From a virus (Duplodnaviria; Heunggongvirae; Uroviricota; Caudoviricetes): a stretch of 4,084 nt of DNA. Under the pieces are notes generated by a model. The model had not been told where the DNA came from, searched no databases, and saw nothing but the letters and a program-made list of their open reading frames with translations. Below, piece by piece: positions 49 to 4,084 of the stretch. The first letter of the stretch is position 1; each line of letters begins with the position of its first letter. The position numbers were made by a program, and so were the translations under genes. The stretch lies in IMG/VR virus record IMGVR_UViG_2703718816_000009; one strand, 5' to 3'.

Positions 49-309
49 ATGGATTACACAAATCTACCAAAACAAACTTTTGCTGATTTAATCGCACTCA
101 GGCAAGCAGTCGTAGCTCTAATCAACTTGTTGCCGGAGAAGGAAAAGGAATTAGTTAAAGCGCTTCTTAACAGAACTGCCGCCGATTTTTCATCATATCC
201 ACTGACAGATGACCTTGCGGACCTTCCTGAATTAATTGCAGCGTCCGCCATTAAGCTTACTGAAGAGATTTACCCTCCTCAAAAATCTTCACAAAATTCC
301 TGCGAGTAA
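49..309 (+). CDS. Hypothetical small acidic, predicted helical protein (86 aa from ATG 49; ORF track starts at GTG 43); function unknown
   Basis: ATG at 49 preceded by GAGG (40-43) with a 5-nt spacer. The product (MDYTNLPKQTFADLIALRQAVVALINLLPEKEKELVK...) has protein-like composition with about 13 acidic and 8 basic residues and no hydrophobic segment, whereas the antisense ORF 54..251 is Ser/Ala/Arg-rich. TAA at 307-309 is followed about 20 nt later by a strong intrinsic terminator (328-363). The frame is open back to position 1, so a longer N-terminus cannot be excluded. Confidence 0.5.
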   Translation: MDYTNLPKQTFADLIALRQAVVALINLLPEKEKELVKALLNRTAADFSSYPLTDDLADLPELIAASAIKLTEEIYPPQKSSQNSCE

Positions 310-808
310 CTTCAATGCAATAATCGTAAAACGCCGCAAACTGCTCATCGCGGCGTTTTTTTTCATCTTCAGAAGGGATCAGCACCGACAATTTTTTATT
401 CAGATCAGCGACGCTGCCCTCCAGTTTTTCAATGGGCGATTCAATATCATCTTTTTCTGACCGCAATGCCGTCGGTGGCGTCTTCAGAGAACCAGTAATT
501 CTTCCCGGTAGCTTTCCTTTGTAGGTTATCCACACATTCTGCGCCTCTAAAATTATGGGGCGCTTTTCCGGCGACTGCTCATCCCCTACACATAACCCGG
601 CAGCAACATCCAGGAATACCTGTCTGATTCTCATTCTGGCTGCTGCCTCATAAAACTCCAGCGCGGCACCTTCAACACGGTCCAGCGAGATGTCCAGGTC
701 AAAAATTTCACCGTCAAAGCGTTTTTTGTCCCGTAAGGCTACAGTTACCGCCACTTTATTCTCAAAATTGCGGACTCCTTTCACAACCAGTTCATAGTCT
801 TGTGTCAT
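257..808 (-). CDS. DUF1327 / YdfR-like prophage protein with an extra C-terminal extension of roughly 80 aa (183 aa from ATG 808; ORF track gives 190 aa from TTG 829)
   Basis: The N-terminal part (MTQDYELVVKGVRNFENKV...FDGEIFDLD...RVEGAALEFYEAAAR) matches my recollection of YdfR-type proteins that follow the holin in Qin-like prophages. ATG 808 lies 4 nt after the holin stop (813-815), with a purine-rich AGAAGAGAG stretch upstream, suggesting translational coupling. The frame stays open to TAA 257-259. The mid and C-terminal portion contains clustered rare codons (AGA, ATA, CTA, GGG) and resembles nothing I recognise. Confidence 0.6.
   Translation of the reverse strand: MTQDYELVVKGVRNFENKVAVTVALRDKKRFDGEIFDLDISLDRVEGAALEFYEAAARMRIRQVFLDVAAGLCVGDEQSPEKRPIILEAQNVWITYKGKLPGRITGSLKTPPTALRSEKDDIESPIEKLEGSVADLNKKLSVLIPSEDEKKRRDEQFAAFYDYCIEVTRRNFVKIFEEGKSLQ
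328..363 (+). terminator. Rho-independent terminator for the 49..309 gene, weaker in the opposite direction
   Basis: Inverted repeat aaaacgccgc (328-337) / gcggcgtttt (350-359) around a 12-nt loop, followed on the plus strand by a run of eight T (356-363). On the minus strand the same hairpin is followed by only four U. It lies inside the minus-strand ORF 257..808. Confidence 0.6.
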
Positions 809-812
809 TGGA

Positions 813-1028
813 TTACTCTCTTCTCGCAACCTTACGCTTGTCTTCTTTAATCTTGAAATAAAGGTTTGTCAGATACGTCAGCAGGCCAAAAACCAGACTA
901 CCCAGCACACCGATTGCAGCCCACTGTGACGGAGTTACTTTATCGAGTAACTGCAATGCCCAGAAACCAGCATTACCAGCCGATGTGCCATAGGCGATAC
1001 CTGTTGTTAACTTATCCATTGATTTCAT
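813..1028 (-). CDS. essQ: Class II holin (pinholin) of the phage 21 S21 family, EssQ/EssD-like, 71 aa with a dual-start motif
   Basis: Product [71 protein letters not shown]: 71 aa, two hydrophobic segments, charged C-terminal tail, and an N-terminal MKSM dual start (Met1 and Met4) as in the S21 antiholin/holin pair. ATG at 1026-1028 with GAGG immediately upstream. The essQ symbol is assigned from the cspB/cspF/Q context; essD-like would be equally consistent with the protein alone. Confidence 0.8.
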
Positions 1029-1246
1029 ATCCTCACCCCGATGTACACAGATGGTGCAATATGTTTGAAAAGATCGGAGTCTATGGGTTAGTTTTTATAG
1101 CAAACGTTGTTCTCAACGGCGCTAAAAAACAGACACATTAAAAATGTGGGTAATTATTTTAAAAGAAAATCATATATTAAATAATAATACGAGATATGTT
1201 TTCATATTTAGTGTACTGTATACGGCCATTTATACAGGAAAAGCCT

Positions 1247-1417
1247 ATGTCAGAACGTAAAGACTCAAAATCACGCCGTAATTATCTCGTTAAATGTTCC
1301 TGCCCAAACTGCACCCAAGAGTCAGAACACAGTTTTTCAAGAGTACAAAAAGGTGCCCTTTTGATCTGCCCTCATTGCAACAAAGTATTCCAGACAAATC
1401 TTAAAGCTGTAGCTTGA
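1247..1417 (+). CDS. Small zinc-ribbon protein (56 aa; two CxxC pairs), cold-shock-island associated; possibly YnfU-like
   Basis: ATG 1247 preceded by AGGA (1236-1239) with a 7-nt spacer. Product MSERKDSKSRRNYLVKCSCPNCTQESEHSFSRVQKGALLICPHCNKVFQTNLKAVA carries CPNC and CPHC about 19 residues apart, typical of a zinc ribbon. The ORF track starts earlier at ATG 1196 (73 aa) but that start has no SD and the extension is hydrophobic and odd. Stop TGA 1415-1417, then a terminator at 1481-1498. I recall a 56-aa zinc-binding small protein in Qin (YnfU) but cannot confirm identity from memory. Confidence 0.6.
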   Translation: MSERKDSKSRRNYLVKCSCPNCTQESEHSFSRVQKGALLICPHCNKVFQTNLKAVA

Positions 1418-1475
1418 TTGATTTTATTCGTAACAAGTATTTTTTATATTTTAATAACATATTTAAAGCAGATAA

Positions 1476-1500
1476 TAAAAAACCCGCCTGAGCGGGTTTA
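1476..1500. terminator. Bidirectional intrinsic terminator shared by the convergent zinc-ribbon gene (plus) and cspB (minus)
   Basis: aacccgc (1481-1487) / gcgggtt (1492-1498) stem with a ctga loop, flanked by an A-run (1476-1480, a U-run for the minus transcript) and ttaatatt on the plus side. Confidence 0.6.
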
Positions 1501-1780
1501 ATATTGTGGTACTTTTTGTGGGAGTCATCCACTTACGCACTTTGTTTTGCTATGCCAGCAGTTAGCTTCTGCTGTAAAACTATTCATGCAGCAAACCTGC
1601 ACTTCACCACAATGGTTAGCATACTTTTCCTGATTAAGTTATTGCCAAATATGCTGGCCATTGTTTCATGTATTGGACCTCCTTACTATTTATTAAAGAG
1701 ATCCAATATTCACCACTCAGTCTGTATCTCCACTCAGGCATCAGCCTTCTTCGTTATCGTATACAGACAAACTATGAATT

Positions 1781-1996
1781 TTAATCAGTAATTATGACAT
1801 TTGCTGCTGCAGGACCTTTAGCACCACTCTCTACAGAGAAGGTAACCTTTTGACCTTCAAATAAGGTTCGAAAATTATCATTCTGAATCGCAGAAAAATG
1901 CACAAACACATCTTTACTACCATCAACAGGAGAAATAAAGCCAAAACCTTTATCAGCGTTAAACCATTTTACTAAACCAGTCATTTTATTTGACAT
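1781..1996 (-). CDS. cspB: Major cold-shock protein of the CspA family, CspB-like, 71 aa
   Basis: Product [67 protein letters not shown]... has the RNP1 (KGFGFI) and RNP2 (VFVHF) motifs. ATG 1994-1996 with TAAGGAA SD 7 nt upstream. Divergently paired with a cspF-like gene, as in Qin. Assignment to cspB rather than cspG or cspI is by recollection. Confidence 0.85.
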
Positions 1997-2156
1997 TCTA
2001 CATTCCTTAACTTGAGCCTTTCGGCATAAATGGCTTGTATAACAGAAACGACTTCGTACTTAATTGGAGAGACTCAAAGAAGGAATAAGTGAATAACACC
2101 TGAAATGAGAACTGCTTTAGTAAACTACTTCGTATATCGTCTGTTCTTCAAACCGA
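1997..2156 (-). promoter_or_regulatory. Long (about 160 nt) cspB 5' UTR with a cold-box-like element near its 5' end
   Basis: Minus-strand sequence ggtttgaagaacagac...taaagcag (about 2120-2156) resembles the cspA cold-box region (GGTTTGACGTACAGAC...TAAAGCAG). The distance from the proposed start site to the ATG is about 160 nt, consistent with the long UTRs of cold-shock genes. Confidence 0.5.
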
Positions 2157-2162
2157 CGCAAT

Positions 2163-2192
2163 CATTAACGCATAGTTGAACATATGAAGCAA
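2163..2192 (-). promoter_or_regulatory. Putative sigma70 promoter of cspB
   Basis: On the minus strand: -35 TTGCTT (plus coordinates 2187-2192), 18-nt spacer, -10 TTAATG (2163-2168), similar to the cspA -10 context, with an AT-rich UP-like stretch upstream (aaaataaaca). Confidence 0.4.
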
Positions 2193-2237
2193 TGTTTATT
2201 TTAGACATCCAGCCATCTTCAACCCCATCAAAAAACT

Positions 2238-2266
2238 ATAGCTTTCTTCAGGAACGTGTGTATAGT
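2238..2266 (+). promoter_or_regulatory. Possible cspF promoter (-10 TATAGT, weak -35)
   Basis: TATAGT at 2261-2266 about 30 nt upstream of the start codon. No convincing -35 hexamer at the right spacing. Confidence 0.25.
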
Positions 2267-2296
2267 GCGCCCAGTTATCAGTATTAAGGAATTTTT

Positions 2297-2509
2297 TTGT
2301 CCCGTAAAATGACAGGAATTGTCAAAACCTTTGACGGCAAAAGCGGCAAGGGTCTTATCACCCCATCCGATGGTCGTATCGATGTCCAGCTTCATGTTTC
2401 AGCGCTCAATCTCCGCGATGCAGAAGAAATTACCACCGGATTACGCGTGGAATTTTGCCGGATAAATGGTCTGCGTGGCCCTTCAGCTGCCAATGTTTAC
2501 CTTTCATGA
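2297..2509 (+). CDS. cspF: Divergent cold-shock-domain protein, CspF/CspH-like (70 aa), apparently starting at TTG
   Basis: Product [70 protein letters not shown]. The 70-aa form needs TTG at 2297-2299, which has AAGGA (2286-2290) 6 nt upstream; the first in-frame ATG (2309) has no SD. The RNP1/RNP2 aromatic residues are replaced ([17 protein letters not shown]), as in the CspF/CspH subgroup. cspF versus cspH is chosen from the prophage context with cspB. Confidence 0.75.
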
Positions 2510-2563
2510 GCTATATTAAAGCTTTAATTTCAGGCCCCATCGAATCAAACATGGAGAGTTTTC

Positions 2564-2653
2564 ATGAATAACCCCGTCTGTCTTGATGACTGGTTGATTG
2601 GCTTTAAAAGCTTATGCTGTACTTTGACCGTAATAGCTCTGCTAATAATGTAA
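2564..2653 (+). CDS. Candidate small hydrophobic protein (29 aa), [29 protein letters not shown]
   Basis: ATG 2564 preceded by GGAGAG (2553-2558) with a 5-nt spacer. The C-terminal half is hydrophobic (LTVIALLIM), like a single-pass or membrane-associated micro-protein. It sits between cspF and the 2795-2820 terminator. Too short for the ORF track. Confidence 0.3.
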
Positions 2654-2794
2654 TATGCAGACTCATTGTATCTAGGGACATAGTACTGGAAGAAAACATT
2701 TTAAACATCAGGCAAAGTCACCCGATAAATAATAAGTAAACAAACATGAATCCCGGAATGAGATTCAACATCTCTATTACCCTATTTAAAGCAC

Positions 2795-2820
2795 AAAAAC
2801 CCGCTCATCAGCGGGTTTTC
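2795..2820. terminator. Bidirectional intrinsic terminator: tR'-like terminator for the short late-promoter transcript (minus) and terminator for cspF (plus)
   Basis: Perfect 9-bp stem aaacccgct (2797-2805) / agcgggttt (2810-2818) with a 4-nt loop. The plus side is followed by T-rich tctactttttct, and the minus side by a U-run from the A-run at 2795-2799. It lies about 60 nt downstream of the proposed late promoter. Confidence 0.6.
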
Positions 2821-2864
2821 TACTTTTTCTTAACGTCGGGTATATAAAGCCCATCGTTGAAAGA

Positions 2865-2892
2865 ATTTTATCCATATTTTTGAAAAATGCAA
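2865..2892 (-). promoter_or_regulatory. Putative late promoter (pR'-like) immediately downstream of the Q gene
   Basis: On the minus strand: -35 TTGCAT (plus 2887-2892), 16-nt spacer, -10 TAAAAT (plus 2865-2870). It begins about 30 nt after the Q stop codon and is followed by a -10-like TTTATATA in the initial transcribed region and then the 2795-2820 hairpin, matching the lambdoid Q / pR' / tR' layout. Confidence 0.4.
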
Positions 2893-2923
2893 GCATTACG
2901 TCGCCATCTTCGGCGAAAATCAT

Positions 2924-3676
2924 TTATCTCGTCACTTTTCTTAATTGCACCTCAGCATATGCTTCTTCCTGCCAGCACTTTGTAACCAGTTTATCAATGA
3001 CATCTGCATATCCTTTGTACCACTGATAATCAGTCAGGTCTGGTACCAGCTTCTGGACATGACACCGCGCCAGTGTCGTTGGTAAACGACTAAACCGGTT
3101 TCCATTGCAACGCCCACAAATCTTATAAACAGGCGCGCCATGAAGCCGGGTCCTTTTTTCATCCAGGACAATACCTTTACCCTTACACCCTCTGCACGCT
3201 GTGCTGACTTCTCCCTTACCATGACAATGCTGACATAGTTCCTTCACCCACTCTTCCTTGATAACAGACTCCCCGCTTCTGGAGTATTTCACCACTTCGC
3301 GCAATACATTATGAAATCCAGTACCAGCACAAGGCTCACAGCGAGCCTTACTTGCCGCAGACCTGGAATAATCAGCAAAGGCAAAACTCACAAGGTAAGG
3401 GATGATCTGTAACCGGATTTCTTCACTCAATTTGTTCAATGTCGGGTTATCCAGTGCCATCGCGTAATTGAGCAGACCTTCAATCGCAAACTGAGGATCC
3501 TGAACGCCAGCTTTTGCCAGGAATAAGGCAAACCCAAGCGGTGCTTTCGACTGCACCATCCCCTGCGCAGCCATCACATCCGTAATCGTTAAACCACCTG
3601 AGCCTGTCGCCGGTGCGGCATCACTCAATTTTGGAGATTTTGGGGAGTAATATTTTGGTAAGGCTTCAAGGTTCAT
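2924..3676 (-). CDS. quuQ: Late-gene antiterminator, Q family (QuuQ-like), 250 aa from ATG 3676
   Basis: Product MNLEALPKYYSPKSPKLSDAAPATGSGGLTITDVMAAQGMVQSK... with four CxxCxGxG-type cysteine motifs (CEPCAGTG, CQHCHGKG, CRGCKGKG, CGRCNGNR). ATG 3674-3676 has GGAG 7 nt upstream; the ORF-track GTG start at 3718 has no SD and would overlap the upstream gene. Its position directly upstream of a promoter/terminator pair and a holin matches Q of lambdoid phages. Confidence 0.85.
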   Translation of the reverse strand: MNLEALPKYYSPKSPKLSDAAPATGSGGLTITDVMAAQGMVQSKAPLGFALFLAKAGVQDPQFAIEGLLNYAMALDNPTLNKLSEEIRLQIIPYLVSFAFADYSRSAASKARCEPCAGTGFHNVLREVVKYSRSGESVIKEEWVKELCQHCHGKGEVSTACRGCKGKGIVLDEKRTRLHGAPVYKICGRCNGNRFSRLPTTLARCHVQKLVPDLTDYQWYKGYADVIDKLVTKCWQEEAYAEVQLRKVTR

Positions 3677-3689
3677 GCTCGTTCTCCAC

Positions 3690-4084
3690 TTACGCCAGTA
3701 CGCCAATTGCCAGCGCACGATCGATAAAACGAAATATCAGCTCCAGTTGGGAGCCATACTTCTCTTCAAATGTCACGGTATCCGCATGCAGCTCGTCGTG
3801 ATGCTTTCTGCACAAAGGCAACACAAAGAGATCATGCGCTTTTGTACCCATTCCACCCTGACCGTGGCCTATCAGGTGGTGGGGATCATCAGCTGGCTTT
3901 CCACAACATGCGCACGGCTGCGTCTTAACCCAGCGCGTGTACTTTTCATTAACCCAGCGGCGACGTTTGGGGCGTAACATAAAAGACTCCGGCGACTCCG
4001 GATCCACTTTCAGCACCAGCACCTTTTTCGCTTTATCCTGGATGATGCTGGTGGCAGGAACTGAACCGCCCCGATTTTCCTGGA
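3690..4084 (-). CDS. ydfU: C-terminal part of a DUF968 / YdfU-like prophage protein with an HNH-like Cys/His motif; 5' end lies beyond the window
   Basis: The reading frame is open from the window edge (4084) to TAA 3690-3692; the ORF-track 'start' at 4022 is an internal GTG. The C-terminus CACCGKPADDPHHLIGHGQGGMGTKAHDLFVLPLCRKHHDELH looks like an HNH/His-Me finger. It sits immediately upstream of Q, as ydfU does in Qin. Confidence 0.7.
   Translation of the reverse strand, partial: QENRGGSVPATSIIQDKAKKVLVLKVDPESPESFMLRPKRRRWVNEKYTRWVKTQPCACCGKPADDPHHLIGHGQGGMGTKAHDLFVLPLCRKHHDELHADTVTFEEKYGSQLELIFRFIDRALAIGVLA

Follow-up and report, generated by a model that had tools for sequence, protein, structure and literature searches.

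The slot between the antiterminator gene Q and the holin gene of lambdoid phages gathers cargo that either profits from late transcription or needs insulation against it. The arrangement considered here, a group of cold-shock genes placed in this slot, is already known from E. coli K-12, where it is annotated in the Qin prophage in the order ydfT(quuQ)-ynfS-cspF-cspB-ynfU-essQ. A matching layout is annotated in CFT073, and the cargo also occupies the Q-to-holin slot of the plaque-forming phages 2H10, Tritos, PhiR42_1, PhiR63_1 and HannyBb. The cspB and cspI genes of Tritos have been described as morons expressed in the lysogen, with cspB transcription reaching 59-fold over the prophage background in LB (PMC9928086). 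An increase of cspB, cspF and cspI in long-term stationary phase, together with the reduced fitness that follows the loss of cspB or cspI, has been reported as well (PMC7406224), and tagging and ribosome profiling have revealed the YnfU protein (10.1101/511675). The literature search returned no experimental study of a Qin-type late promoter, and nothing specific on the function of QuuQ or on csp genes in the late path.

Cold-shock cargo between Q and the holin gene

In the window, that is, the whole stretch of 4,084 nucleotides that was analysed, late transcription is directed along the minus strand, and the interval 1029-2923 is the exact gap between the stop of Q (2924) and the ATG of the holin gene (1028). 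This gap is the well-known cold-shock cargo (cspF, ynfS, cspB, ynfU) of Qin-type lambdoid E. coli prophages. It contains cspF and ynfS on the plus strand, cspB on the minus strand, ynfU on the plus strand and two strong hairpin terminators, so that three of the four cold-shock genes are antisense to late transcription. An earlier note on this DNA had described the gap as an island of about 1.9 kb, and the elements that it named are all present where it had placed them. Its count of three genes was too low: cspB, cspF and a zinc-ribbon gene were confirmed, the last of these being ynfU, whereas the fourth small gene, ynfS, had been overlooked.

The cspB coding sequence (1781-1996, minus strand; CSD PF00313, E 8.4e-32) is the one that lies sense to late transcription, and 69 of the 71 residues of its product are identical to K-12 CspB. 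The gene is reportedly cold-induced in K-12. In the window it is preceded by a 5'UTR of the cspA thermoregulator type (1997-2157, minus strand) with a cold-box hairpin at its 5' end. The Rfam model RF01766, which includes the long 5'UTR, was matched at 2157..1718 (-) over model positions 1-428 with 157.4 bits, above the gathering threshold of 78, and its alignment places model position 1, the start of the leader, at 2157. The leader of about 160 nt proposed earlier is thus borne out, with a length of 161 nt by the Rfam match. It is also the best-conserved stretch of the cargo, a comparison of eight relatives having given 0-2 variable sites per 40 nt, and the sequence upstream of it looks, by eye, like a cspA promoter. 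Downstream of cspB, an 11-codon reading frame with a perfect Shine-Dalgarno sequence was rejected as a conserved protein because 3 of its 11 residues differ from K-12, against 95% identity in the DNA around it.

The cspF gene (2297-2509, plus strand; CSD, E 4.5e-22) is divergent from cspB, and its product is identical to K-12 CspF at 70 of 70 residues. It is followed by ynfS (2564-2653, plus strand; PF23697, E 1e-21), which encodes a small protein of 29 aa and is annotated in K-12. On the other side of cspB, ynfU (1247-1417, plus strand; PF23499, E 2.5e-31) encodes a zinc-knuckle protein of 56 aa, 55 of which are identical to K-12 YnfU.

The cargo proper, a stack of morons on both strands, was delimited by its mosaic junctions with other phages to 1041-2791 (1751 bp). 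On the Q side, the homology of SfV, Ayreon and phiSTEC1575-Stx2k to the Q module stops at window position 2792; these phages share Q, PR' and tR' up to that point and then continue with other cargo. On the holin side, the homology of the Ayreon holin module ends at 1040, which leaves 12 nt of it in front of the ATG. Three of the properties by which morons are recognized were noted at this locus. On the flanks, the Q module recurs in SfV, the Stx2k phage and Ayreon, and the holin module in Ayreon, with other content in between. The base composition differs from that of the neighbouring phage genes, with 31-39% GC over 1001-2300 and 2501-2900 and 45-54% in Q, ydfU and the holin/ydfR pair; cspF, at 43-50%, is above the rest of the cargo. 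A promoter and terminators of its own are predicted in silico from the start of the cspB leader and from the two hairpins, with z from -4.0 to -7.4. The cargo, counted when at least 80% of 1041-2791 was covered, occurs in 1619 of the 5426 complete E. coli genomes searched.

Late promoter, terminators and the late transcript path

The Q antiterminator gene (ydfT/quuQ, 2924-3676, minus strand; PF03589, E 1.3e-52) is of the lambda-Q family; its product is 34% identical to lambda Q (BLASTP, E 2e-40), from which it is distinguished by an extra zinc-finger insert of 48 aa, and 233 of 250 residues are identical to the K-12 protein. Directly downstream of Q, the late promoter PR' (2850-2892, minus strand) was assigned by homology to lambda PR'. 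It is composed of the -35 hexamer TTGCAT at 2892..2887 (-), a spacer of 16 nt, the -10 hexamer TAAAAT at 2870..2865 (-) and, 6 nt further, the -10-like sequence AACGATGGG at 2858..2850 (-), a predicted sigma70-dependent pause element, whose sequence and spacing are invariant in lambda PR' and 10 relatives; the transcript is predicted to start at about 2858 (-). The homology to lambda was used for this assignment, the generic sigma-70 scan being of no use here: it gave 7 promoter-like sites in the window, under the shuffle expectation of 8.0, and missed PR' because the -35 of this promoter agrees with the consensus at only 3 of 6 positions.

The intrinsic terminator expected between promoter and first late gene in a late operon of the lambda type is represented by the tR' hairpin (2796-2819, minus strand), with dG -21.0 and z -7.4 on the minus strand and dG -14.1 and z -6.1 on the plus strand, where its other face also ends the cspF-ynfS unit. 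The hairpin, read as 2819..2796 (-), is followed by UUUUUGUGCUUU. It has been conserved together with Q in SfV, Ayreon and phiSTEC1575-Stx2k, the SfV and Ayreon records listing it as a terminator, and it is part of the Q module rather than of the cargo. The unit of Q, late promoter and tR' described in the earlier note is accordingly present in full, and it is because the lambda-like PR' lies directly after Q, with tR' next, that the cargo stands in the late transcript path.

The second hairpin (1480-1499) is shared by the convergent cspB (-) and ynfU (+), with 452 nt between it and the downstream holin ATG. Its dG is -15.5 on the minus strand (z -5.6) and -14.9 on the plus strand (z -4.0). 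The terminator scan gave a stem of 8 bp and a good U-run, TTTTTTATTAT, on the minus strand, and a weak tail, TTTAATATT, on the plus strand. Both of the terminators that had been called bidirectional therefore exist as hairpins, but the one at 1480-1499 has a good U-run on the minus strand only. Weak Rfam matches (Trp/Leu leader, GcvB, Flavi_CRE and similar), which mostly fall on terminator hairpins, were rejected as chance, with E values of 0.28-0.93, far below gathering.

The best explanation, which we hold to be very probable, is that of a stack of self-contained morons placed between Q and the holin gene of a lambda-type late operon, as in K-12 Qin. By homology to lambda, RNA polymerase would start at PR' (about 2858, minus strand), pause at the AACGAT -10-like element and, where Q is lacking, halt about 65 nt on, at tR' (2819..2796). 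In the lysogen, transcription of cspB would set out from its own promoter, run through the thermosensing cspA-type leader and end at 1499..1480 (-), while cspF-ynfS and ynfU would be expressed from the opposite strand and would end at the other faces of both hairpins. We suggest a protective role in cold-shocked lysogens for the terminator after cspB, in that it would keep the cold-induced cspB transcription off the lethal holin gene. On induction, the polymerase modified by Q would read through tR' and the downstream terminator, i.e., it would pass tR', the antisense cspF and ynfS, the sense cspB, the second terminator and the antisense ynfU, and would then continue into the holin gene and the remaining late operon. 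The benefit of the cargo, in the form of RNA chaperones for cold and stationary phase, would be the host's and would not consist in the control of lysis.

State of the source copy and other readings

On the holin side of the cargo, essQ (813-1028, minus strand; PF04971, E 1.1e-33) encodes a class II holin of the P21 type, identical to K-12 EssQ at 67 of 71 residues, and is the first lysis gene of the late operon. It is followed by a gene of the ydfR family (DUF1327; 257-808, minus strand; PF07041, E 1.6e-41) in a variant of 183 aa, whose homologue in CFT073 and 2H10 carries the annotation YdfR family. On the Q side, only the 3' part of ydfU (the DUF968 gene; 3690-4061, minus strand; PF06147, E 8.6e-64, profile positions 49-171 only) is present, as it is truncated by the right-hand IS; the gene is full-length in CFT073.

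The ends of the window fit IS629/IS1203-like elements of the IS3 family in direct orientation, with 25 nt of the IRL and 23 nt of the IRR included. The IRL (1-25) lies outside the prophage, and its element extends to the left of the window: TGAACCGCCCCGGAAATCCTGGAGA, the reverse complement of 1-25, runs on in other contigs into ...CTAAACTTCCTGAGAAAGAGGTAAACAGGATGACTAAAAATACTCG. It is absent at the corresponding position of CFT073, and an exact-string search of the GTDB representatives for the left IS junction found no match. The IRR (4062-4084) belongs to an element extending to the right, with TGAACCGCCCCGATTTTCCTGGA running on as GAGTGTTTTATCTGTGAACTCAGG... in 10 metagenome contigs; these 10 matches of the right IS-end string in the JGI metagenomes did not include one with the flank of the window. 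Alignments of the whole window to the complete E. coli genomes and PLSDB plasmids end at 23 and 4065 and so fall short of the IS ends on both sides, and the PLSDB plasmids gave partial matches only. A composite transposon was considered for the segment of about 4 kb between the IS ends and rejected, as no second IS-segment-IS copy was found in these searches.

These ends bear on a reading for which we see the chances as evenly balanced, namely, that the source copy is a fossil, a prophage fragment bracketed by IS elements, without working late transcription and kept for the use of its csp genes by the host. It is a reading of the condition of this copy and can stand beside the explanation given above for the type of element. 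It is favoured by the IRL and IRR themselves, which truncate ydfU and part the holin and ydfR genes from the endolysin gene, and by the annotation of K-12 Qin, with its like layout, as a cryptic prophage. It is also favoured by a private deletion of 1 nt in the PR' spacer, which measures 16 nt here against 17 in every relative compared; the deletion is absent from all 5426 complete E. coli genomes searched. With IS elements on both sides and this deletion, a working late path in the source genome is doubtful. However, all reading frames (Q, holin, the csp genes, ynfU and ynfS) are intact, the rest of the prophage may continue past both IS copies, and the deletion, which sits in a homopolymer run, could be a sequencing error.

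A very unlikely alternative is that the holin gene has a promoter of its own in the AT-rich region 1029-1250, which would leave the cargo outside the functional late path. This region has 31% GC and does contain hexamer look-alikes, such as TTAATA-16-AATAAT at 1180..1153 (-), a match at 9 of 12 positions; such sites are, however, no more frequent in the window than chance, as the scan against shuffled sequences given above indicates. The homology of Ayreon begins just 12 nt before the ATG, and it follows that no conserved promoter travels with the holin gene, while SfV and Ayreon have an annotated terminator right upstream of their holins. A constitutive holin promoter would, moreover, presumably be harmful to the lysogen. 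A late promoter immediately upstream of the holin was what the earlier note had said would take the island out of the late path, and the sequence argues otherwise, since a lambda-type unit of PR', pause element and tR' comes straight after Q.

It is just as improbable, if not slightly more so, that the cargo is wired into the control of lysis, CspB or the cold-induced Csp pool aiding the read-through of terminators or melting structure in the late mRNA: cspB is indeed sense to late transcription and flanked by terminators, a further cold-shock cluster (cspI, ynfQ, gnsB) lies behind the lysis genes of the matching prophages, and members of the CspA family reportedly act as transcription antiterminators, but no sequence feature requires this role, the lambda-type Q-modified polymerase already ignores intrinsic terminators, phages with the matching Q/PR'/tR' module function with wholly different cargo, Tritos still makes plaques although it lacks window positions 2500-2749 (the 3' end of cspF and ynfS), and cspB behaves as a moron expressed in the lysogen. 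The associated proposal that Csp proteins could help polymerase and ribosomes through structured late RNA in the cold, with lysis timing dependent on temperature as the outcome, has correspondingly slim chances.

Comparison with related prophages and host loci

The importance of the arrangement beyond the confirmation of a textbook pattern is small: the layout had been correctly described in the earlier note, but it is ordinary. The by-products include the precise module boundaries at 1040 and 2792 and the placing of the Qin-type late promoter at the level of sequence. In K-12 Qin the gene set, order and orientations are those of the window, with 93.8% DNA identity over window positions 603-4007, and PR' and tR' are likewise shared apart from the spacer of 17 nt. 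Qin differs in having a short ydfR of 103 aa, an intact ydfU and no flanking IS629-like ends. The closest phages are 2H10 (Glaedevirus), at 99.5% identity, and Tritos (E. coli LF82), at 94.8%, with matching cargo in the matching slot; both are complete, viable phages, and in both cspI is found after the lysis genes.

The reputation of the Q-S slot as an insertion hotspot, to which the earlier note had appealed, is upheld by the other contents found behind the identical Q/PR'/tR' module, namely tRNAs with stx2k or, in SfV and Ayreon, a methylase-like gene. Cold-shock genes are thus found here behind the module by which stx2 is driven in some phages. In phiSTEC1575-Stx2k and the Stx2c phages it is 93-94.5% identical to that of the window, with the homology ending at 2792. 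The holin of phiSTEC1575-Stx2k is of the same class II family, and its late-path slot is occupied by other cargo (the Stx2c records are unannotated there), which amounts to about 4.3 kb and includes tRNA-Met, two tRNA-Arg, stx2AB and an iraM-like gene. This cargo is mostly sense to late transcription and expressed through it, whereas the cargo of the window is antisense for three of its four genes; tRNA genes of the kind found in the slot of Stx phages were absent from five related loci.

In lambda, Q is homologous and the promoter layout alike: AACGATGGG again follows the -10 at a distance of 6 nt, and S is preceded by an intrinsic terminator. The Q-S interval of lambda, however, measures 676 nt and is without autonomous cargo, its -35 is stronger than the TTGCAT of the window, and its terminated PR' RNA is 194 nt long, against the RNA of about 65 nt predicted here between PR' and tR'. 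A relative of the cargo is also found outside prophages, on the E. coli chromosome, where the cspG-cspH pair is likewise divergent and shows 77-78% DNA identity with window positions 1882-2505, which cover the 5' half of cspB, its leader, the intergenic region and cspF. The chromosomal pair is followed by ymcF-ymcE-gnsA, and the paralogues of this group, ynfQ and gnsB, stand behind cspI, beyond the lysis cassette of the prophages.

Gene content and state of the window copy

The minus strand, which is that of late transcription, carries the 3' part of ydfU (DUF968; 4061..3690), cut by the right IS end at 4061/4062, the Q antiterminator gene (3676..2924; PF03589), a class II P21-type holin gene (1028..813; PF04971) and a ydfR-family gene (DUF1327; 808..257) that is unusually long, with 183 aa. 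Between Q and the holin (1029-2923) lie cspB (1996..1781, -), in the sense of the late direction, and the plus-strand genes cspF (2297-2509), ynfS (2564-2653; PF23697) and ynfU (1247-1417; PF23499). The three genes and two hairpins described for this interval in the earlier note were confirmed, but one gene, ynfS, had been overlooked. Its cold-box leader of 160 nt for the cspB-like gene agrees with a full-length match of the Rfam cspA thermoregulator (2157 to 1718), which scores 157.4 bits, the gathering score being 78, and whose start gives a leader of 161 nt. An 88-aa ORF without a Pfam match (43-309, +) overlaps the 3' part of the opposite-strand ydfR-family gene (257-808), which is a partial pseudogene in the CFT073 annotation and is annotated as a gene in its 183-aa form in phage 2H10.

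The window ends are not of prophage origin: 1-25 and 4062-4084 are IRL and IRR of an IS629/IS1203-like element of the IS3 family, in direct orientation, and such elements cut ydfU and part holin/ydfR from the endolysin. Thus, the 4036-bp Q-csp-holin segment has an IS copy on each side, or else a single IS borders it at both ends in a circular or repeat-collapsed assembly; the IS-prophage junctions were absent from every collection searched. The prophage part shows five differences in all from CFT073, two of them within the late promoter PR'. One of these two is common to other strains, whereas the second removes 1 nt from the A-run of the spacer (2871-2886, -), leaving 16 nt versus 17 in lambda and ten relatives of the element. 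No relative and none of the 5426 complete E. coli genomes has this deletion, which may reflect genuine decay of the promoter or an error in sequencing a homopolymer.

Late promoter and its terminator

The Q protein is a true homologue of lambda Q (34% identity, E 2e-40), with an insert of 48 aa bearing extra CxxC pairs. Directly 3' of its stop, on the minus strand, PR' comprises TTGCAT (2892..2887), the 16-nt spacer and TAAAAT (2870..2865), followed after 6 bases by AACGATGGG (2858..2850). The lambda promoter reads TTGACT-17-TAAATT-6-AACGATGGG, with the identical nine-base block at the same 6-nt spacing, and both block and spacing are invariant in lambda and the ten relatives. The lambda block resembles a -10 element; by retaining sigma-70 it brings about the pause where Q loads. 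The tR' hairpin (2819..2796) stands about 40 nt past the block, so that an unmodified PR' transcript would measure about 65 nt. From this layout the late promoter lies next to Q and not immediately upstream of the holin (about 1029-1200), which upholds the placement of the cargo in the late transcript path. A generic promoter scan upstream of the holin gave nothing above chance, and the holin module does not bring a promoter along with it. No experimental study of a Qin-type Q or late promoter was found in the literature.

Cargo boundaries, terminators and proposed passage of the late transcript

The DUF968-Q-PR'-tR' module is 94-96% identical in SfV, in Ayreon (isolated on K-12) and in phiSTEC1575-Stx2k, and in all three the homology stops at 2792, within the U-run of tR'. 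What follows in SfV and Ayreon is orf47/orf48, annotated in Ayreon as a putative DNA methylase, with an annotated terminator just upstream of their holins, whereas phiSTEC1575-Stx2k has three tRNAs, stx2AB, an iraM-like gene and then a class II holin of the window's family. On the other side, homology to the Ayreon holin reaches only to 1040, leaving 12 nt ahead of the ATG. These limits define the cargo proper as the 1751 bp of 1041-2791, for the greater part of which GC is 31-39%, compared with 45-54% in the flanking regions. One Q module with different cargo in these phages bears out the view of the Q-to-S slot as an insertion hotspot. In PhiR63_1 (3961-5512 of its locus, L031) and HannyBb, the csp cargo is preceded by a further, ORF-poor cargo of 1.55 kb, with a repeat of the 3' part of Q and an additional PR' at its flanks; this extra cargo is found in 40 of the 5426 E. 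coli genomes. It gave no tRNA or Rfam match, and its ORF of 61-94 aa, antisense to late transcription, has a C-terminal membrane anchor and is ElaB/YqjD-like by eye.

On either strand, the two hairpins that the earlier note took for bidirectional terminators, at 2796-2819 and at 1480-1499, are much more stable than shuffled sequences (z between -4.0 and -7.4); at 1480-1499 the U-run is convincing on the minus strand only. A stretch of 280 nt separates the 1499..1480 terminator from the cspB stop. The hairpin directly after that stop (1768..1716; dG -16.7) lacks a U-run, and cspB may accordingly possess a long 3'UTR. Within 1634-1669 (-) there is an 11-codon ORF (MKQWPAYLAIT) with a perfect Shine-Dalgarno TAAGGAGGT 7 nt upstream of its ATG; K-12 keeps this signal, but the peptide there is MKQWLAYLAKS, with 3 residues changed. 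An A-rich tract directly before tR' (2820-2835) provides the T-run for plus-strand termination of cspF-ynfS and occurs in all eight csp-bearing Q-module variants, not in SfV, Ayreon or the Stx2k phage. It fits insulation of the cargo and may be an adaptation to bidirectional use, but could also be mere lineage history.

In the mechanism that we consider most probable, PR' transcripts would end at tR' without Q. In the lysogen each cargo unit would have its own promoter and use a single face of either hairpin as its terminator; the one at 1499..1480, strong on the minus strand, would stop cold-induced cspB transcription short of the holin, 452 nt further on. After induction, Q-modified polymerase would pass both terminators and the antisense genes to reach the lysis genes; in lambda, such polymerase passes intrinsic terminators without help. 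The earlier note was correct in its anatomy and framework, a Q-to-S hotspot cargo in the late transcript path, and its only novel element, the coupling of lysis-gene expression to temperature by the cargo, is a speculation that we consider very improbable: the sequence favours it only in that cspB is sense to late transcription and a second cold cluster follows the lysis genes, but unrelated cargo works with the same Q module, Q-modified polymerase suffices at intrinsic terminators in lambda, and Tritos forms plaques though lacking 250 bp (window 2500-2749) with the last cspF codons and all of ynfS, which are therefore dispensable for the phage.

Chromosomal and prophage cold-shock loci

The chromosomal order cspH>|<cspG<ymcF<ymcE<gnsA looks like a prophage late region minus the lysis cassette. 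Window 1882-2505, the CFT073 prophage locus (L001 5461-6521 and 9759-10487) and the chromosomal locus (L033 2336-3613) were compared. The cspG leader and the divergent cspH/cspF partner are common to the cspB side only (83% and 77% identity), and the downstream genes to the cspI side only (YmcF/YnfQ 43/62, GnsA/GnsB 36/57); at informative sites the cspG coding sequence is closer to cspB over its initial 70 nt (9:3) and to cspI thereafter (26:15). Such an architecture would result if the direct repeats cspB and cspI recombined, in one direction or the other; no paper on such an event was found.

Among the 5426 complete E. coli genomes, 1619 have the cargo over at least 80% of its length, and it occupies the same Q-to-holin slot in the viable phages 2H10, Tritos, PhiR42_1, PhiR63_1 and HannyBb. 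During long-term stationary phase, a joint rise of cspB, cspF and cspI has been reported, and strains that have lost cspB or cspI compete less well (PMC7406224); YnfU has been detected as a zinc-knuckle small protein (10.1101/511675). The lysogen of plaque-forming Tritos transcribes the morons cspB and cspI 59-fold and 93-fold, respectively, over the prophage background (PMC9928086). E. coli K-12 has the window order annotated in its cryptic prophage Qin (ydfT, ynfS, cspF, cspB, ynfU, essQ), and so has CFT073 in a complete prophage, which is 99.85% identical to the window. Thus, neither the arrangement nor the status of cspB as a moron is new, and the window is the known, annotated arrangement of the Qin/Tritos type.
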